A stretch of DNA of 64,000 nt from a virus (Duplodnaviria > Caudoviricetes): IMG/VR virus record IMGVR_UViG_3300031853_000021, positions 14,689 to 78,688 of that record, one strand, 5' to 3'. The position numbers and the translations under genes are program-made. Position 1 is the first letter of the stretch, and the number at the start of each line of letters is the position of its first letter. This document shows positions 4,380-47,612 of this stretch, piece after piece. Below the pieces are notes generated by a model. That model did no database searches, was not told the DNA's origin, and was given only the letters and a program-made list of their open reading frames with translations.

Positions 4380-4763
4380 TCATTCATACACCACTTCAGA
4401 CATTTCCATGATGCACTCTTCCAGCATGGCGATCTGCTCTTTCTGCTCGCTGACGATCTTCGTCAGCTGCGCCCGCGTCATCGCTTCTTCTTCGGGCGCT
4501 GGCGGATCCGGATCCGGATGCGTGTCGTCCATTCCGTACTGCCACCACTTCGCGAAGTCCTCTTCGATCTCCTGCGCCGTCGCGGCCTTGCCGTCAGGCA
4601 TGAAGAACTGTACTTCATCGAACCGGTACATCGTCCGATCCGGCTGATCCTCCTGTTTGTACGGCTGGATATTGTCCGCAAGACGGACGAATATCTTCCC
4701 GCCCGGCAGATGTTCCAGTGTCACCTTCTGCGGCTTCTCTGCCGCGTCGCTCTTGTAATACAT
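4380..4763 (-). CDS. Hypothetical protein, position typical of an XkdW-like/tail-fibre chaperone
   Basis: MYYKSDAAE start after AAAGGAG; 127 aa, near-identical homologue at 43057-43440; precedes the CD1375-like gene. Confidence 0.6.
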   Translation of the reverse strand: MYYKSDAAEKPQKVTLEHLPGGKIFVRLADNIQPYKQEDQPDRTMYRFDEVQFFMPDGKAATAQEIEEDFAKWWQYGMDDTHPDPDPPAPEEEAMTRAQLTKIVSEQKEQIAMLEECIMEMSEVVYE

Positions 4764-4782: not shown

Positions 4783-6006
4783 CTACTGGTCCAGCCGCTG
4801 ATAAAATGCATTTATTTCCCTGGCGGTCCGCATCAGGTCATCTATGTGATACTTTTCAATCAGGCCGTCTGAATCCGTTTGAATGACATAGCTGTTATAT
4901 GAGATAATCTTCCGCGCTCTATCTCGCCGCAGCGTGCCTGTTTCTGTCAGCTCCCTGTATCCTCTAATGAATTGTCTTCTTGCCCTCCGGAAGACGCGCC
5001 TGCGGATCGTGATGTGCGTCCTGCTTATCCTGTATCCCGCCATGTCCAGCATCGGAACGCCGCGCTGCGCTTTTCCCGGAAGGCTTCGCCGTCGCTTTTC
5101 TTCTTCGATTGTCAGGATCTTGCTGATTCCGGATGTCGTCTTCAGTTCAATCCCCATTTTCTCCCGGAAGTATTTATCCAGATGCTTCGTCGCCCGTTTC
5201 ATCCCTTTTATGGATCTGGACATCAGCGCGAAGTCATCCATGAAGGTGACGGTGCGGATCACGTACGGGATCTTCTTCCCGCGCCGCGTGGTTCCCTGTG
5301 CATACAGGTCGCGGATCGCGTAGGACATCGCGAAATTGAACAGCCAGGCATCGATGTACCCGCCGATGATCAGATGCCCGTCCGGCGCGATCCGTCCCAG
5401 ATATTCCAGCAGGACGATCGCGGCCTTCGCTTTCGGGATCTCCTTCTTCAGGATGTCCACGCAGACCTGATACTTCAGCGTCGCGTATGCGTGGACGACG
5501 TCCGTCTTCTGGATGTACCTGACGCCGACCGTCTCCTTCAGAAGGTATCTGTGCGCCTGATCCTTCAGCAGCGTCTGACCGCGTCCCGGAATGCTGGCGT
5601 GCTGCGTCGGCAGAAGCCGCGCGTTGATCAGCGGTTCGATCATCAGCTTTTCGATGTGTCCGATCAGCTGATGCAGGATGGACAACAGTGCGATGTCCCG
5701 TGTCTTCCCTGTCATGCCGTCCGGACGCTGGCGGATCGTCGGCGGCTCCATGTCGTCCGGTTCGATCCCGTATTCGACCAGATCTTCCACGACGCCGTAC
5801 AGCATCAGCCCGATCGAATGGATCGCTTCTTCCTTCACACGTCTGGATCCGGACAGATCGTCGATCAGGATTTCCGTCCTTCCGATTCCGGCGTACTTCT
5901 CGATGAATACCAGAATGTCGCGGTGCTTCCATTTGCTTTTGAAACATTCTTCGACTGCTTCTTCGCATAGCTTCAGGGACAGCTTCCTGTATCTCTTCGT
6001 GTGCAT
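4783..6006 (-). CDS. DGR reverse transcriptase, left copy (407 aa)
   Basis: RT motifs GKTRDI, QHASIPGRG, KTDV, IIGGYIDAW, TFMDDF, LDMAGY; adjacent to the TR/VR pair. Confidence 0.92.
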   Translation of the reverse strand: MHTKRYRKLSLKLCEEAVEECFKSKWKHRDILVFIEKYAGIGRTEILIDDLSGSRRVKEEAIHSIGLMLYGVVEDLVEYGIEPDDMEPPTIRQRPDGMTGKTRDIALLSILHQLIGHIEKLMIEPLINARLLPTQHASIPGRGQTLLKDQAHRYLLKETVGVRYIQKTDVVHAYATLKYQVCVDILKKEIPKAKAAIVLLEYLGRIAPDGHLIIGGYIDAWLFNFAMSYAIRDLYAQGTTRRGKKIPYVIRTVTFMDDFALMSRSIKGMKRATKHLDKYFREKMGIELKTTSGISKILTIEEEKRRRSLPGKAQRGVPMLDMAGYRISRTHITIRRRVFRRARRQFIRGYRELTETGTLRRDRARKIISYNSYVIQTDSDGLIEKYHIDDLMRTAREINAFYQRLDQ

Positions 6007-6197
6007 AATTCTTTATTTTGTGAAGCGGCGTTCGGTTGCGGTCTGACCTTAAAGCAGATCCGGCCTTGTTACTACTTGCCGCACGCGCAGCCCACAGCTG
6101 CGTGTTCCCCTTTCGAAGATTCCGGTTTTACTGATTTTTGCTTGCGCATGGATATGCAGACGCACATCAGCAGACTTTCGCCTGCCTTCATGAAAAT

Positions 6198-6341
6198 AAG
6201 TCGCGGACGGCTGTTCCAGTTCGCGTTACCGGGCGTGTTGTTGCCATTCTCGCACGCCAGCCCGGCATTCGCCCCGTTGTTCAAGTTCGCGAACCGCCAC
6301 GGGCAGCGAACCCCGGCGGAGCCGGTACCGTTGAAGGCCGA
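6198..6341 (-). ncRNA. DGR template repeat (TR), copy 1
   Basis: 144-bp match to 6443-6586; 11 AAC/AAT codons and 27 adenines on the sense strand; lies outside the target gene. Confidence 0.95.
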
Positions 6342-6379
6342 TCCCGCGCCTGCATACCCTGTTTGTTTATAGTTACATC

Positions 6380-6415
6380 AGGGGACTTCCCCCTCTGGAC
6401 GTCTTACGACGTCCA
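6380..6415 (-). promoter_or_regulatory. Tandem hairpins downstream of VR (DGR target-recognition element)
   Basis: TGGACGTC-GTAA-GACGTCCA (8-bp stem, 4-nt loop holding the TAA stop) followed by AGGGG-AAGT-CCCCT. Confidence 0.75.
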
Positions 6416-8113
6416 TTCACCCCGCTTTTTACCCGCTCCACAAAGCCGCGGACGGCTGCGCCAGCTCGCGTTACCGGGCGCGTTGTGGCCATACTCGCAC
6501 GCCAGCCCGGCAAGCGCCCCGCTGTCCAAGGACGCGAACCGCCACCGGCAGCGAACCCCGGCGGAGCCGGGACCGCTGAAGGCCGACTTGAAGTAGGTCG
6601 TCGCTGATCCGCCGACCTCTTCCGGGAACAGGACGCCCTTCTTTGTCTTCATGAAGGACTTCACATAGTTCCAGCCGGATTTCATTCCTTCGTACAGCAG
6701 GCCAGTGTCTTCGTAGTTCGATGTCACGGATCCCGCCAGATTCTGACTGTCGCGGCATTCGTAGATCGAATAATCCCAATCAGACACAGCGTTCGCCGTG
6801 ACGGTATAAAGCGGATCCAGGCCGACCGCATATGCGCCGTCCAGGACTTCCACGCCAGCCACACGAAGCGGCGACGTTCCATCCGTCAGCCCGTGCGGGC
6901 ATCCGTCCTTCCTTCCCGGAAGAAGTTCTGTCGCGCCTGAATGCCACGGCATCGTCGAAATGTATGTCGTCGCTGTCGTGGTGAATGCGCTTTCCGTCTC
7001 TATGCCGACCGCTGCCAGTTCGTCGCCGTCGATCGTGACGGTTTCGATGGAACTGATCTTGACCAGATCCAGAATGTTCCGCATGTGTGCCTGTCCTCTG
7101 TCCTTGTTCGTGGACGATCCCATGTCGCCGATTGACACGGTCGAACCGACGATCAGGTTCGCGGCCTGCGTCGTCGACAGGATCACGCGCTTCACATTTT
7201 CTTCTGCCTTCGCTACCTGGTACTGTCTGTCGTAGCTGATGCAGCCGTTCGCGATGTTGCTGTTTTCCAGATCGAAGTGCCGCAGCTGCCACATCCGCAG
7301 GATCCATCTTGTATCGCAGTCATTCCACAGTCCTTCATAGATCGTCATCTTCCGCGCCGCTGTGATGCCTGCGGTCGCGCTGGCGAAGTTGTACGGCCTG
7401 ATGCCTGCGCCGGATGTCAGTGCGCCGCTGCTGTTCAGTCCGCCGGGGAATGAAGGATGCCATGTCAGCGCCCGCTTCGTTCCGTCCGGTGCGACATCCC
7501 CGGCGTCCGGATAGAATCCCGCGCCTTTGGTCGTCCTGAAGCTGATGAAATTGAATGAACCGTCGTTCCATTCCTTGATCCACAATGCCAGCGCGAACGT
7601 CCAGACGGGCGCGTCTTCGCCTGTGATGTCGAAGCCGTCTTCGCCTTCGAAGTATGTGATGTTCATGGTTCCATCTTCCAGGGACATCGCATTCGCCCGG
7701 ATGTACCATGTCATCGGATCTTCGTCCGCCCAATCTTCGACGGCGGCATCGGATGCCGTGCACAGCTGCGCGGCGCTCTTTCCTTCCAGATCGTCCAGCG
7801 GCGTCATCGCCGTGTTTCCGGATACTGCTGCATCATAGCTTCGCAGCGTGTACGCCTTGCTGTTCCACGCCTGCGCCGCTGCTTTTGCGAATCTTTCAAG
7901 GATCTTATATTTGCTTGTCTCTCCTGCTGCCGCTGCGCGCGGATAGAATTCCCAGAAGACGCGCGTGGTGTTCGTTCCGTCCAGGACGCTTTTGCACGCC
8001 GCGTCAAGGACAGCCGCATCAGATGACCCGCCGTTCAGCGCGATCGATTCCAGCGCGGCGGCGATCCGTTCGTGCTGTGTCCACGAAGGGAAAATCAGAT
8101 CCATGTCTGCCAT
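6404..8113 (-). CDS. DGR target protein, putative receptor-binding tail protein with C-terminal CLec-fold variable region
   Basis: VR encodes SAFSGPGSAGVRCRWRFASLDSGALAGLACEYGHNAPGNASWRSRPRL at the C-terminus; follows baseplate genes. Confidence 0.88.
   Translation of the reverse strand: MADMDLIFPSWTQHERIAAALESIALNGGSSDAAVLDAACKSVLDGTNTTRVFWEFYPRAAAAGETSKYKILERFAKAAAQAWNSKAYTLRSYDAAVSGNTAMTPLDDLEGKSAAQLCTASDAAVEDWADEDPMTWYIRANAMSLEDGTMNITYFEGEDGFDITGEDAPVWTFALALWIKEWNDGSFNFISFRTTKGAGFYPDAGDVAPDGTKRALTWHPSFPGGLNSSGALTSGAGIRPYNFASATAGITAARKMTIYEGLWNDCDTRWILRMWQLRHFDLENSNIANGCISYDRQYQVAKAEENVKRVILSTTQAANLIVGSTVSIGDMGSSTNKDRGQAHMRNILDLVKISSIETVTIDGDELAAVGIETESAFTTTATTYISTMPWHSGATELLPGRKDGCPHGLTDGTSPLRVAGVEVLDGAYAVGLDPLYTVTANAVSDWDYSIYECRDSQNLAGSVTSNYEDTGLLYEGMKSGWNYVKSFMKTKKGVLFPEEVGGSATTYFKSAFSGPGSAGVRCRWRFASLDSGALAGLACEYGHNAPGNASWRSRPRLCGAGKKRGEWTS
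6443..6586 (-). repeat. DGR variable repeat (VR), copy 1
   Basis: 16 mismatches to TR, 15 at TR adenines. Confidence 0.95.
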
Positions 8114-8128
8114 TTTCTTGTTCCTCCT

Positions 8129-8935
8129 TTATGCTGTGATCTTTGTCAGTGACATGTGCGGGACGCCCCGCTGCGCGTAGATCGCATACGCATATTTCAC
8201 ATCGTTGTCGCTGTCGTAGATGTACGACGCTTCATTGATCTGGCTTGCGATCTCCACGGCTTCGTTCGCCTTATTCAGGACGATCGTCGTGTTCTCCTGC
8301 CGCGTGTTCTCCGCTGTGACGCGTCCGTTCTCTGCGGTCACGCGGGCGTTCTCTGCTTCGACGCGGGCGTTCTCTGCGGTTACGCGGGCGTTCTCTGCGG
8401 TCACGCGGGCGTTCTCCGCATTTGCGCGGCTTGTCTCTGCGCTGACGCGCCTGTTCTCTGCCGTCTTTCTGGCGTTCTCTGCGGTCACGCGGGCGGCTTC
8501 CGCTTCCGCGTATGCCTTCATGGTCGCGTCGAACAGTGACATTTCGTCGCCGGATATGATGGCGTCTTCATCCTTGACGCACGGTTCGATCTCGATTTCG
8601 AACGTGCAGGACGTGATGACTTCGGTCATGTCCCCGGACTTCACTTCGATTTCTGCCAGTGCTGTCCCCGCTGCCGCCAGCGTCTGCGACGTCAGTTCCA
8701 TCGTGACGACAGACCCGGAAAACGTGCACGGCGAATATGCCCGCTTCAGATCCGGCTTCTTGATGTAGGCCGTGACGTTCGATCCGGGCGGGATCTCATA
8801 TTCTTCGCCCTGATTCAGCAGCTGGATTTCGACGTACCGCGTCGCCCTGTCGTGCTGCTTCGCCGATACCTGATACTGCTTCGTAGATCCTGACATCTCG
8901 ATCTTCAGTCTTTTGATGACCCTGTTCAGGCTCAT
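8129..8935 (-). CDS. BppU-like baseplate upper protein with heptad coiled coil
   Basis: AKQHDRATRYVEIQL...YIKKPD...AGTALAEIEV; ARVTAEN heptads. Confidence 0.75.
   Translation of the reverse strand: MSLNRVIKRLKIEMSGSTKQYQVSAKQHDRATRYVEIQLLNQGEEYEIPPGSNVTAYIKKPDLKRAYSPCTFSGSVVTMELTSQTLAAAGTALAEIEVKSGDMTEVITSCTFEIEIEPCVKDEDAIISGDEMSLFDATMKAYAEAEAARVTAENARKTAENRRVSAETSRANAENARVTAENARVTAENARVEAENARVTAENGRVTAENTRQENTTIVLNKANEAVEIASQINEASYIYDSDNDVKYAYAIYAQRGVPHMSLTKITA
8306..8494. repeat. Nine degenerate 21-bp tandem repeats encoding (A/R)RVTAEN heptads
   Basis: GTTCTCTGCGGTCACGCGGGC units on the plus strand; same array at +38677. Confidence 0.9.
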
Positions 8936-43056: not shown

Positions 43057-43440
43057 TCATTCGTATACCACTTCCGACATCTCCAAGATGCAATCTTCCA
43101 TCATGGCGATCTGCTCTTTCTGTTCGCTGACGATCTTCGTCAGCTGCGCCCGTGTCATCGCTTCTTCTTCAGGCGCTGGCGGATCCGGATCCGGATGTAC
43201 ATCATCCACCCCGTACTGCCACCATGTCGCGAAGTCCTCTTCGATCTCCTGCGCCGTCGCGGCCTTGCCGTCCGGCATGAAGAACTGGACTTCGTCAAAA
43301 CGGTACATCGTCCGATCCGGCTGATCCTCCTGTTTGTACGGCTGGATATTGTCCGCAAGACGGACGAAGATCTTCCCGCCCGGCAGATGTTCCAGCGTCA
43401 CCTTCTGCGGCATCTCTGCCGCGTCGCTCTTGTAATACAT
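43057..43440 (-). CDS. Hypothetical protein, XkdW-like/tail-fibre chaperone position
   Basis: Homologue of 4380-4763. Confidence 0.6.
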   Translation of the reverse strand: MYYKSDAAEMPQKVTLEHLPGGKIFVRLADNIQPYKQEDQPDRTMYRFDEVQFFMPDGKAATAQEIEEDFATWWQYGVDDVHPDPDPPAPEEEAMTRAQLTKIVSEQKEQIAMMEDCILEMSEVVYE

Positions 43441-44683
43441 GCAGCCACTCCTTTCTTTTCTGCTGATCCAGCCGCTGATAGAGTCCCTGAACCTGTTCAG
43501 CCATCTTGATCAGTTCTTCCACGTGGTACTTTTCCTTCAGCCCGTGCGCGTCGGTCTGCTGCACGTAGCTGTTGTACGATATGATTTTCTGTGCACGATC
43601 CCGCCGCAGTGTTCCCGTTTTCTTCAGCTCTCTGTATCCTCTGATCAGCTGCCTTCGTGCCCTCCGGAAGACGCGCCTGCGGATCGTGATGTGCGTCCTG
43701 CTGATCCTGTATCCCGCCATGTCCAGCATCGGGACGCCACGCTGCGCTTTTCCCGGAAGGCTCCGTCGTCGCTTCTCTTCTTCGATCGTCAGTATCTTAC
43801 TGATTCCGGATGTCGTCTTCAGTTCGATTCCCATTTCCTTCCGGAAGTATTTGTCCAGGCGCTTCGTCGCCCGCTTCAGTCCTTTGACGGATCCAGACAT
43901 CAGCGCGAAGTCGTCCATGAAGGTGACGACGCGGATCACGTACGGGATCTTCTTCCCGCGCCGTGTGGTTCCCTGTGCGTACAGGTCGCGGATCGCGTAG
44001 GACATCGCGAAATTGAACAGCCAGGCGTCGATGTACCCGCCGATGATCAGATGCCCGTCCGGTGCGATCCGTCCCAGATATTCCAGCAGGGCGATCGCGG
44101 CCTTCGCCTTCGGGATCTCCTTCTTCAGGATGTCCACGCAGACCTGATACTTCAGCGTCGCGTATGCGTGGACGACGTCCGTCTTCTGGATGTACCTGAC
44201 GCCGACCGTCTCCTTCAGAAGGTATCTGTGCGCCTGATCCTTCAGCAGCGTCTGACCGCGTCCCGGAATGCTGGCGTGCTGCGTCGGCAGAAGCCGCGCG
44301 TTGATCAGCGGTTCGATCATCAGCTTTTCGATGTGTCCGATCAGCTGATGCAGGATGGACAACAGTGCGATGTCCCGTGTCTTCCCTGTCATGCCGTCCG
44401 GACGCTGGCGGATCGTCGGCGGCTCCATGTCGTCCGGTTCGATCCCGTATTCGACCAGATCTTCCACGACGCCGTACAGCATCAGCCCGATCGAATGGAT
44501 CGCTTCTTCCTTCACACGTCTGGATCCGGACAGATCGTCGATCAGGATTTCCGTCCTTCCGATTCCGGCGTACTTCTCGATGAATACCAGAATGTCGCGG
44601 TGCTTCCATTTGCTTTTGAAACATTCTTCGACTGCTTCTTCGCATAGCTTCAGGGACAGCTTCCTGTATCTCTTCGTGTGCAT
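43295..44683 (-). CDS. DGR reverse transcriptase, right copy (462 aa, 55-aa read-through extension)
   Basis: Same motifs as the left copy; TAG replaced by CAG at 43460-43462. Confidence 0.88.
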   Translation of the reverse strand: MHTKRYRKLSLKLCEEAVEECFKSKWKHRDILVFIEKYAGIGRTEILIDDLSGSRRVKEEAIHSIGLMLYGVVEDLVEYGIEPDDMEPPTIRQRPDGMTGKTRDIALLSILHQLIGHIEKLMIEPLINARLLPTQHASIPGRGQTLLKDQAHRYLLKETVGVRYIQKTDVVHAYATLKYQVCVDILKKEIPKAKAAIALLEYLGRIAPDGHLIIGGYIDAWLFNFAMSYAIRDLYAQGTTRRGKKIPYVIRVVTFMDDFALMSGSVKGLKRATKRLDKYFRKEMGIELKTTSGISKILTIEEEKRRRSLPGKAQRGVPMLDMAGYRISRTHITIRRRVFRRARRQLIRGYRELKKTGTLRRDRAQKIISYNSYVQQTDAHGLKEKYHVEELIKMAEQVQGLYQRLDQQKRKEWLHVLQERRGRDAAEGDAGTSAGREDLRPSCGQYPAVQTGGSAGSDDVPF

Positions 44684-44874
44684 AATTCTTTATTTTGTGA
44701 AGCGGCGTTCGGTTGCGGTCTGACCTTAAAGCAGATCCGGCCTTGTTACTACTTGCCGCACGCGCAGCCCACAGCTGCGTGTTCCCCTTTCGAAGATTCC
44801 GGTTTTACTGATTTTTGCTTGCGCATGGATATGCAGACGCACATCAGCAGACTTTCGCCTGCCTTCATGAAAAT

Positions 44875-45018
44875 AAGTCGCGGACGGCTGTTCCAGTTCG
44901 CGTTACCGGGCGTGTTGTTGCCATTCTCGCACGCCAGCCCGGCATTCGCCCCGTTGTTCAAGTTCGCGAACCGCCACGGGCAGCGAACCCCGGCGGAGCC
45001 GGTACCGTTGAAGGCCGA
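44875..45018 (-). ncRNA. DGR template repeat, copy 2
   Basis: Identical to 6198-6341 by base-wise comparison. Confidence 0.95.
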
Positions 45019-45056
45019 TCCCGCGCCTGCATACCCTGTTTGTTTATAGTTACATC

Positions 45057-45092
45057 AGGGGACTTCCCCCTCTGGACGTCTTACGACGTCCA
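45057..45092 (-). promoter_or_regulatory. Tandem hairpins downstream of VR, copy 2
   Basis: Identical to 6380-6415. Confidence 0.75.
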
Positions 45093-46790
45093 TTCACCCC
45101 GCTTTTTACCCGCTCCACAAAGCCGCGGACGGCTGCGCCAGCTCGCGTTACCGGGCGCGTTGTGGCCATACTCGCACGCCAGCCCGGCAAGCGCCCCGCT
45201 GTCCAAGGACGCGAACCGCCACCGGCAGCGAACCCCGGCGGAGCCGGGACCGCTGAAGGCCGACTTGAAGTAGGTCGTCGCTGATCCGCCGACCTCTTCC
45301 GGGAACAGGACGCCCTTCTTTGTCTTCATGAAGGACTTCACATAGTTCCAGCCGGATTTCATTCCTTCGTACAGCAGGCCAGTGTCTTCGTAGTTCGATG
45401 TCACGGATCCCGCCAGATTCTGACTGTCGCGGCATTCGTAGATCGAATAATCCCAATCAGACACAGCGTTCGCCGTGACGGTATAAAGCGGATCCAGGCC
45501 GACCGCATATGCGCCGTCCAGGACTTCCACGCCAGCCACACGAAGCGGCGACGTTCCATCCGTCAGCCCGTGCGGGCATCCGTCCTTCCTTCCCGGAAGA
45601 AGTTCTGTCGCGCCTGAATGCCACGGCATCGTCGAAATGTATGTCGTCGCTGTCGTGGTGAATGCGCTTTCCGTCTCTATGCCGACCGCTGCCAGTTCGT
45701 CGCCGTCGATCGTGACGGTTTCGATGGAACTGATCTTGACCAGATCCAGAATGTTCCGCATGTGTGCCTGTCCTCTGTCCTTGTTCGTGGACGATCCCAT
45801 GTCGCCGATTGACACGGTCGAACCGACGATCAGGTTCGCGGCCTGCGTCGTCGACAGGATCACGCGCTTCACATTTTCTTCTGCCTTCGCTACCTGGTAC
45901 TGTCTGTCGTAGCTGATGCAGCCGTTCGCGATGTTGCTGTTTTCCAGATCGAAGTGCCGCAGCTGCCACATCCGCAGGATCCATCTTGTATCGCAGTCAT
46001 TCCACAGTCCTTCATAGATCGTCATCTTCCGCGCCGCTGTGATGCCTGCGGTCGCGCTGGCGAAGTTGTACGGCCTGATGCCTGCGCCGGATGTCAGTGC
46101 GCCGCTGCTGTTCAGTCCGCCGGGGAATGAAGGATGCCATGTCAGCGCCCGCTTCGTTCCGTCCGGTGCGACATCCCCGGCGTCCGGATAGAATCCCGCG
46201 CCTTTGGTCGTCCTGAAGCTGATGAAATTGAATGAACCGTCGTTCCATTCCTTGATCCACAATGCCAGCGCGAACGTCCAGACGGGCGCGTCTTCGCCTG
46301 TGATGTCGAAGCCGTCTTCGCCTTCGAAGTATGTGATGTTCATGGTTCCATCTTCCAGGGACATCGCATTCGCCCGGATGTACCATGTCATCGGATCTTC
46401 GTCCGCCCAATCTTCGACGGCGGCATCGGATGCCGTGCACAGCTGCGCGGCGCTCTTTCCTTCCAGATCGTCCAGCGGCGTCATCGCCGTGTTTCCGGAT
46501 ACTGCTGCATCATAGCTTCGCAGCGTGTACGCCTTGCTGTTCCACGCCTGCGCCGCTGCTTTTGCGAATCTTTCAAGGATCTTATATTTGCTTGTCTCTC
46601 CTGCTGCCGCTGCGCGCGGATAGAATTCCCAGAAGACGCGCGTGGTGTTCGTTCCGTCCAGGACGCTTTTGCACGCCGCGTCAAGGACAGCCGCATCAGA
46701 TGACCCGCCGTTCAGCGCGATCGATTCCAGCGCGGCGGCGATCCGTTCGTGCTGTGTCCACGAAGGGAAAATCAGATCCATGTCTGCCAT
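45081..46790 (-). CDS. DGR target protein, copy 2 (identical 569 aa)
   Basis: Translation identical to 6404-8113. Confidence 0.88.
   Translation of the reverse strand: MADMDLIFPSWTQHERIAAALESIALNGGSSDAAVLDAACKSVLDGTNTTRVFWEFYPRAAAAGETSKYKILERFAKAAAQAWNSKAYTLRSYDAAVSGNTAMTPLDDLEGKSAAQLCTASDAAVEDWADEDPMTWYIRANAMSLEDGTMNITYFEGEDGFDITGEDAPVWTFALALWIKEWNDGSFNFISFRTTKGAGFYPDAGDVAPDGTKRALTWHPSFPGGLNSSGALTSGAGIRPYNFASATAGITAARKMTIYEGLWNDCDTRWILRMWQLRHFDLENSNIANGCISYDRQYQVAKAEENVKRVILSTTQAANLIVGSTVSIGDMGSSTNKDRGQAHMRNILDLVKISSIETVTIDGDELAAVGIETESAFTTTATTYISTMPWHSGATELLPGRKDGCPHGLTDGTSPLRVAGVEVLDGAYAVGLDPLYTVTANAVSDWDYSIYECRDSQNLAGSVTSNYEDTGLLYEGMKSGWNYVKSFMKTKKGVLFPEEVGGSATTYFKSAFSGPGSAGVRCRWRFASLDSGALAGLACEYGHNAPGNASWRSRPRLCGAGKKRGEWTS
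45120..45263 (-). repeat. DGR variable repeat, copy 2
   Basis: Identical to 6443-6586. Confidence 0.95.
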
Positions 46791-46805
46791 TTTCTTGTTC
46801 CTCCT

Positions 46806-47612
46806 TTATGCTGTGATCTTTGTCAGTGACATGTGCGGGACGCCCCGCTGCGCGTAGATCGCATACGCATATTTCACATCGTTGTCGCTGTCGTAGATGT
46901 ACGACGCTTCATTGATCTGGCTTGCGATCTCCACGGCTTCGTTCGCCTTATTCAGGACGATCGTCGTGTTCTCCTGCCGCGTGTTCTCCGCTGTGACGCG
47001 TCCGTTCTCTGCGGTCACGCGGGCGTTCTCTGCTTCGACGCGGGCGTTCTCTGCGGTTACGCGGGCGTTCTCTGCGGTCACGCGGGCGTTCTCCGCATTT
47101 GCGCGGCTTGTCTCTGCGCTGACGCGCCTGTTCTCTGCCGTCTTTCTGGCGTTCTCTGCGGTCACGCGGGCGGCTTCCGCTTCCGCGTATGCCTTCATGG
47201 TCGCGTCGAACAGTGACATTTCGTCGCCGGATATGATGGCGTCTTCATCCTTGACGCACGGTTCGATCTCGATTTCGAACGTGCAGGACGTGATGACTTC
47301 GGTCATGTCCCCGGACTTCACTTCGATTTCTGCCAGTGCTGTCCCCGCTGCCGCCAGCGTCTGCGATGCCAGTTCCATCGTGACGACGGAACCCTCAAAC
47401 GTACACGGAGAATATGCGCGTGTCAGGTCCGGCTTTTTGATGTAGGCCGTGACGTTTGATCCCGCCGGGATCTCGTAGGCCGCGCCGTTGTCCAACAGTT
47501 CCACTTCGACGTACCTGGTCGCCCTGTCGTGCTGTTTTGCTGATACCTGGTACTGTTTTGTGGATCCGGACATTTCTATCTTCAGGCGTTTGATCACTCT
47601 GTTCAGGCTCAT
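46806..47612 (-). CDS. BppU-like baseplate upper protein
   Basis: First 82 aa diverged from the left copy, remainder identical. Confidence 0.75.
   Translation of the reverse strand: MSLNRVIKRLKIEMSGSTKQYQVSAKQHDRATRYVEVELLDNGAAYEIPAGSNVTAYIKKPDLTRAYSPCTFEGSVVTMELASQTLAAAGTALAEIEVKSGDMTEVITSCTFEIEIEPCVKDEDAIISGDEMSLFDATMKAYAEAEAARVTAENARKTAENRRVSAETSRANAENARVTAENARVTAENARVEAENARVTAENGRVTAENTRQENTTIVLNKANEAVEIASQINEASYIYDSDNDVKYAYAIYAQRGVPHMSLTKITA

Follow-up and report, generated by a model that had tools for sequence, protein, structure and literature searches.

The locus analyzed here raises the question of whether a DGR-type reverse transcriptase (RT) in which the Ser-Gln (SQ) of motif 4 is replaced by Asp-Ala (DA) can carry out adenine-specific mutagenesis. 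It lies in a window of 64,000 nt (the whole stretch of DNA that was analyzed), which is part of a 78,688-nt (78.7-kb) IMG/VR virus record, and the carrier is a temperate siphovirus-like phage. A previous sequence-only reading of the window had described an RT with non-canonical signature motifs next to a repeat pair with adenine-specific differences; this observation was confirmed, while the interpretation attached to it is partly supported. Based on the sequence comparisons described below, the locus is very probably a functional, Avd-less phage DGR with an RT of the DA lineage and a host among the gut or rumen Clostridia.

Organization of the DGR locus

The following features, all on the minus strand, were assigned in the window:

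6404..8113 (-): target gene, 569-aa tail protein (phrog_17147; weaker match to tail phrog_5302)
6443..6586 (-): VR1, variable repeat of 144 nt at the 3' end of the target gene (TR/VR alignment)
6397..6414 (-): hairpin GGACGTC-GTAA-GACGTCC, 28 nt downstream of VR1 (sequence read directly)
6198..6341 (-): TR1, template repeat of 144 nt, base-identical in seven independent IMG/VR contigs
6007..6197 (-): TR-RT spacer, conserved structured RNA (17-locus comparison)
4783..6006 (-): RT1, DGR-type RT of 407 aa, ending at a TAG where RT2 has CAG
5347-5352 (-): D219-A220 within motif 4 (IIGGYIDAW) of RT1 (translation)
5233-5244 (-): catalytic FMDD of RT1, residues 255-258 (translation)
4380..4763 (-): small acidic ORF, 127 aa, pI ~4.3, with its own AAGGAG ribosome-binding site; candidate accessory gene
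45081..46790 (-): second target gene, same sequence as at 6404..8113 (sequence comparison)
45120..45263 (-): VR2, identical to VR1 (repeat comparison)
44875..45018 (-): TR2, identical to TR1 (repeat comparison)
43295..44683 (-): RT2, 462 aa, with DA at 44024-44029 and FMDD at 43910-43921
43057..43440 (-): small acidic ORF copy 2, 127 aa, pI 4.26 (ORF translation)

In each unit, the target gene with its VR is followed on the minus strand by the hairpin, the TR, a spacer of ~190 nt, the RT and the acidic ORF, and the cassette is placed between tail(-fibre) genes and a lysis cassette. VR1 lies inside the 3' end of the target ORF, 37 nt before the stop of ORF 6404-8113, whose product showed no match in a Pfam search. 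TR1 is intergenic and non-coding and is located 192 nt upstream of the RT1 start. The hairpin after VR1 consists of a 7-bp GC-rich stem and a GNRA-type GTAA loop that contains the TAA stop of the target gene. An IMH/IMH*-type difference was found 4 nt from the repeat end, where a fixed A in the TR is opposed to a G in all VRs. RT1 and RT2 are the only RT genes in the whole 78.7-kb record. Furthermore, seven to eight tandem 21-nt repeats (CGCGGGCGTTCTCTGCGGTCA-like) were observed at 8301-8489 and 46978-47196; they sit in a 268-aa gene upstream of the target and would correspond to a 7-residue repeat in a tail-fibre-like protein.

The record contains two related units of ~38.7 kb each, with 3301-25235 of the window matching 41964-63993 at 80-91% identity. 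Within them, a 3.2-kb block (5479-8678 vs 44156-47355) that reaches from the 5' part of the RT across TR, VR and target gene into the gene upstream is 100% identical, and 10-30% of positions differ in its flanks. Motif 4 falls just outside of this block, where the copies show 3 differences per 100 nt, and FMDD falls in the diverged part with 12 differences per 100 nt. Because of the identical block, RT1 and RT2 do not represent independent evidence, and the identity of VR1 and VR2 means that any diversification must predate the sharing of the cassette or the assembly of the contig. The identical cassette reflects either a recent exchange between co-resident phages or an assembly chaining two strains. 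It is a serious possibility that the record combines two variant strains of a single phage of ~38.7 kb, which the assembler linked via the shared identical sequence: the record measures 2.03 unit lengths, and the units are diverged throughout except for the identical block, which includes the fast-evolving VR. The same picture would, however, result from related prophages in tandem or polylysogenic arrangement that recently underwent gene conversion.

The two RT copies differ at their 3' ends, where the TAG of RT1 (4783-4785(-)) corresponds to a CAG in RT2 (43460-43462(-)) and the frame stays open for 55 further codons. The acidic ORF overlaps, in another frame, the RT 3' end that encodes these extra 55 residues of RT2, and several members of the RT family stop at the end point of RT1. 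As residues 429-462 of RT2 are predicted to be disordered, the tail may be dispensable read-through.

Signature motifs of the reverse transcriptase

Translation of 5233-5376(-), a span that had been given correctly to within one base, yields HLIIGGYIDAWLFNFAMSYAIRDLYAQGTTRRGKKIPYVIRTVTFMDD. Residues 211-225 read HLIIGGYIDAWLFNF in both RT1 and RT2 and are followed by the catalytic motif at residues 255-258, so that FMDD and IGGYIDAW are indeed present in the two (non-independent) copies.

While phmmer with the single RT sequence found no match in the PDB, and 8ub7 was recovered by the family profile alone, the profile built from 23 family members matches the BPP-1 RT (8ub7_A) with an E-value of 1.4e-12, the next PDB match being at 0.025. 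In this alignment, IIGGYlDAwLFN is placed on IPIGSLTSQLFAN of 8ub7 and KxR on KPR of bRT; I214-G215 therefore correspond to I181-G182, D219-A220 to S186-Q187 and R103 to R74 of bRT. The alignment bears out the claim that the aliphatic residue before the Gly is retained and that SQ has become DA. Hence, the I-G of the DGR signature (I/L/V)GxxxSQ is kept and its SQ is replaced. The AlphaFold model of the RT (pLDDT 90.6) has its best structural match in 8ub7 as well (E 1.9e-14, TM 0.77 by target), and D219-A220 are predicted to lie within the first turn of the helix after Ile-Gly. A match to PHROG 1423 'reverse transcriptase' (E 6e-31) was also obtained.

Among the 23 family sequences (36-50% identity), L212, I213, I214, G215, G216 and Y217 are invariant, as are K101, R103 and both catalytic Asp residues, and D219, A220, W221, L222 and F223 are conserved to at least 90%. 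Extending the alignment down to 25% identity revealed a smooth series from IGGYLDA over IGGYLST/SS/SA to IGSYLSQ.

The catalytic YxDD motif is present as FMDD. This variant had been listed among the non-canonical features, a view that we do not share: Phe replaces Tyr in 14% of DGR RTs (Schillinger et al., PMC3521204), and FMDD, YMDD and YADD alternate within the RT family, where alignment and tree indicate that Y and F have switched repeatedly. FMDD was consequently rejected as a special feature. For motif 4, published exceptions comprise SP, SH, NQ, PA, AQ and VQ in 15/155 elements (PMC3521204), and DA is not among them. Given these ~10% of exceptions, the SQ signature is a diagnostic aid rather than a strict requirement. 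A full-text literature search for GGYLDAW, GGYIDAW or GxxxDA returned nothing relevant, and the supplementary RT sets of Schillinger 2012 do not contain the motif.

Phylogenetic position and distribution of the DA lineage

In an exhaustive protein search, 482 representative proteins were retrieved with E-values up to 0.001. Among the full-length members of this set, all relatives down to ~37% identity share IIGGY(L/I)(D/E)(A/S), and a small group at ~30% identity has ST, SS or SC in motif 4. The remaining relatives carry SQ or S with another residue (SA, SK, SM, SC, SL); in general, the last residue of motif 4 is thus under loose constraint in phage DGR RTs.

A tree of 91 RTs, all of the DGR type, placed 21 DA, one DS and one EA sequence on one long branch (SH-aLRT 100), which is sister to the small ST/SS/SC group; both are located inside the SQ-type RTs. 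With this nesting and with 8ub7 as the best PDB match in both sequence and fold, the RT is a member of the DGR RTs, and the proposal of a divergent DGR RT lineage holds. The RT is thus part of a monophyletic group within the DGR RTs that retains the Ile-Gly of motif 4 and the fingers Arg and has Asp/Glu-Ala, occasionally with Ser in the second position, instead of Ser-Gln. Judged from the aligned sequences, the exchange of Ser for an acidic residue (Asp/Glu) is the clade's own mark.

More than 350 protein clusters of Clostridia phages from gut and rumen fall into the D/E-x clade, and a single cluster at 90% identity contains 4,688 member sequences. Screening of 185,579 species genomes yielded 21 loci, all of them in Clostridia. 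The hosts include two Lachnospiraceae isolates, Hominifimenecus microfluidus CLA-AA-H215 and Fusicatenibacter faecihominis CLA-AA-H277, as well as Oscillospiraceae and further MAGs from human, rumen, deer and rabbit. In one related genome copy (L122, G276:C132:1-2541), the DGR RT is split into two overlapping ORFs by an apparent frameshift, and the acidic ORF is intact.

Adenine-specific variation and activity of the element

The TR and VR of the window differ at 16 of 144 nt; 15 of these differences are located at TR adenines, and the remaining one is a C>G exchange. To place this pair in a wider context, 80 IMG/VR loci and further loci from metagenome assemblies were each searched for an RT-proximal imperfect repeat. 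With the RT-proximal copy taken as TR, 95% (771/810) of the mismatches in 54 distinct D/E-x loci fall on TR adenines, leaving a non-adenine share of 5% across the clade. The adenine-specific pattern reported for the window is therefore a property of the clade. It is seen with each catalytic motif found in the D/E-x loci (FMDD 510/526, YMDD 134/146, YADD 127/138). The SQ-type RTs around the clade have TR/VR pairs of their own; the same treatment of SQ and S-x neighbours gave 87% (186/215) of mismatches at adenine in 13 loci.

Seven IMG/VR contigs from different rumen metagenomes encode RTs that are 93-98% identical to that of the window and share a base-identical TR. In the six contigs that could be aligned without gaps, the VRs all differ from each other and from that of the window, and they do so only at TR adenines. 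Such turnover of VRs on an unchanged TR in closely related elements indicates that mutagenic homing is ongoing. Since VR differences are filtered by selection, they constitute indirect proof of specificity.

It could be objected that the RT is inactive or irrelevant and that the VR owes its pattern to an ancestor or to a different RT acting in trans. The identity of VR1 and VR2 and the TAG of RT1, premature relative to RT2, would be compatible with this view. However, the record holds no other RT, the catalytic and dNTP-pocket residues are all invariant across a clade diverged to 36% identity, each of the 54 clade loci has its own adenine-specific TR/VR pair beside the RT, and the VRs differ among near-identical elements with a common TR. 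We consider this objection largely refuted and such an origin of the VR extremely improbable. The lack of another RT in the record, together with the clade-wide TR/VR data, argues strongly that enzymes of exactly this RT type carry out adenine mutagenesis, and we infer that this very RT performs it here, rather than a relative acting in trans.

Implications of the loss of Ser-Gln

In the proposed mechanism, the TR RNA would be copied to cDNA by the RT with misincorporation opposite adenines, and the mutated cDNA would then replace the VR, whereby the tip of the tail protein would be rewritten. In the DA lineage, Asp or Glu in the first turn of the helix could take over the structural, helix-start role of the motif 4 Ser.

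In the cryo-EM structure, the base of the incoming nucleotide is contacted by R74, I181 and Q187 of bRT (bioRxiv 10.1101/2023.10.23.563531). The exchanges R74A and I181N lower adenine misincorporation, while Q187P leaves its frequency unchanged and shifts the bias toward dA misincorporation (PMC7826257). Both residues with a demonstrated effect have counterparts in the present RT, R103 for R74 and I214 for I181. The DA clade is the natural counterpart of this mutational work, as it retains specificity with Ala in place of the Gln and Asp/Glu in place of the Ser. As the lineage keeps adenine-restricted variation, SQ is a lineage marker of most DGR RTs and no requirement for adenine mutagenesis. 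The 54 loci are natural, clade-wide evidence that mutagenesis can be directed to adenines without the Ser-Gln dipeptide, which has long served as the DGR signature, and the invariant Ile-Gly and fingers Arg narrow down where the determinant of selective infidelity can lie. The expectation that these motifs would be informative on the residues underlying infidelity at adenines is supported to this extent; because adenine misincorporation was already unchanged in Q187P, the dispensability of SQ is extended by our data and is not a new finding. The DGR of the DA lineage is accordingly a variant of a known system, and it extends current knowledge without overturning it. The two cultured carriers make the biochemistry testable.

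The exchange to DA might not be neutral, in that loss of the base-contacting Gln could alter which wrong nucleotide is placed opposite adenine, or how often. The substitution spectra differ between the D/E-x loci (A>G 378, A>T 231, A>C 162) and their SQ/S-x neighbours (84, 77 and 25; chi-square p 0.004), and the contact of Q187 with the incoming base and the altered bias of Q187P would fit such an effect. However, the loci are phylogenetically non-independent, selection acts on the VRs via different target proteins, the group used for comparison comprises no more than 13 loci, and the adenine share of the D/E-x loci at least equals that of the neighbours. We therefore regard an effect of this kind as unlikely, and the apparent A>G enrichment relative to the SQ neighbours is only a lead.

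Comparison with known DGRs and candidate accessory components

The element resembles the BPP-1 DGR (mtd-avd-TR-brt; 8ub7-8ubf) in its tail-protein target, the 3' position of the VR, the TR beside the RT and the adenine-specific differences. Both systems further share a GC-rich hairpin with a 4-nt loop after the VR, a structured RNA after the TR, and an RT with the fingers Arg, the motif 4 Ile-Gly and xMDD, the BPP-1 RT being the best match in sequence and structure. The element departs from BPP-1 in having DA and F where the BPP-1 RT has SQ and Y, in the length of the RT, which exceeds that of BPP-1 by ~80-130 aa and carries an additional helical region at the N terminus, in a small acidic gene that is coupled to the 3' end of the RT gene, and in the lack of Avd throughout the record. 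Another phage DGR RT with a non-SQ motif 4 is known from the epsilon crAss-like phage crAssE-Sib (PMC11054128); there, SQ is changed to SP in a Bacteroidota phage and the Ser is kept, whereas here the Ser is replaced by Asp/Glu across a large clade.

A search of the 78.7-kb record for Avd (PF05635) found none, with a positive result for the control genome. This absence fits the known Avd-less architecture: Avd is not a defining component, and 29% of 372 DGRs belong to Architecture A (TR-RT), which has no accessory gene (Wu et al. 2018, PMC5758913). With its target-TR-RT order, the present element is similar to such DGRs of Architecture A, Lineage 3 (PMC5758913).

The 127-aa acidic ORF showed no family match in Pfam, NCBIfam and PHROG profile searches. 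An HMM of this protein detected a homologue in 85 of the 88 fetched loci, including SQ-type neighbour loci, and the three exceptions are contigs ending at the RT. The homologues have a length of 96-146 aa and a pI of 4.05-4.93. The ORF is translationally coupled to the RT: in six independently looked-up protein clusters, its start lies 4 nt ahead of the RT stop irrespective of the genes that come next. In one locus (L065) it is located between VR and TR, the usual position of avd. In an RT-independent sample of 401 genomes, the single new strong match to the acidic protein lies directly downstream of a DGR-type RT; likewise, each of five carrier genomes contains a single match, again directly downstream of a DGR-type RT. 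The predicted structure (pLDDT 90.3) combines helices with a sheet of four strands, and a Foldseek search against the PDB found no fold relative (best E 0.32). An Avd-like four-helix bundle, considered as an alternative fold, was rejected on the basis of this model.

These data point to the acidic protein as a candidate accessory component of phage DGRs that lack Avd, in which it may serve as a cofactor of the RT. It may be related to CH1 (pI 4.7), a small acidic protein that is likewise confined to avd-less cassettes (Wu et al. 2018, PMC5758913), an analogy drawn from size class and charge; CH1, however, measures 160-169 aa and belongs to the Bacteroides-type Lineage 3a, while the proteins found here are shorter and originate from Clostridia phages.

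The spacer between TR and RT would provide a further component. Across 17 diverse loci, its hairpin shows double changes in 9/13 pairs; for a single pair, double compensatory changes occur in up to 10/17 sequences. A long-range GCGGC/GCCGC helix was identified as well, together with the conserved blocks AAAATC, GCAAGTAGTAAC, TTTAAGG and AACCGAA. An Rfam search of the TR/spacer region gave no match. It is tempting to speculate that the D/E-A clade and its ST/SQ sisters form an Avd-independent DGR machine with a remodelled dNTP pocket, an N-terminal helical extension, the coupled acidic protein and the spacer RNA. We rate this proposal as rather doubtful at present; if true, it would constitute a second ribonucleoprotein solution to adenine mutagenesis.

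Visibility to annotation pipelines and DGR catalogues

The sequence-only reading had also predicted that motif-based screens could miss this RT. Standard annotation does miss it: Pfam RVT_1 scores 27.8 and 24.4 bits for the two RTs, below the gathering cut-off of 29.6, and most close relatives of the RT have no precomputed Pfam match. NCBIfam offers only a group II match of 23.5 bits against a cut-off of 300, and a clade member in GenBank (MBR3236829.1) is named 'hypothetical protein'. A comparable case has been described for myDGR, which missed the GxxxSP RT until the motif was edited in silico (Babkin et al., PMC11054128).

The prediction very probably does not extend to the catalogue of Roux et al. 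2021, in which custom HMMs were applied after an initial Pfam round, for which metagenome matches had to reach 30 bits or more (PMC8144416). This catalogue lists an RT-OTU (Meta_3300021256_Ga0223826_1000104711) with 16 members from rumen, assigned to a Firmicutes virus and to the phage structural target PC_00002 (PMC8144416). Five of the six metagenomes that yielded the 93%-identical loci L001-L006 also supplied its members. Given these shared metagenomes and the custom HMMs, the catalogue very probably already contains this RT group, a match that was made by metagenome and not by RT sequence. RT motifs are not discussed in the paper itself, where the word 'motif' has 0 occurrences (PMC8144416).

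Our analysis thereby flags an abundant gut and rumen lineage that scores below the Pfam threshold and appears as 'hypothetical protein' in general annotation. Given the sub-threshold Pfam scores and the changed motif, the number of DGRs in phages of Clostridia may be underestimated by pipelines that take Pfam or the motif as their starting point.
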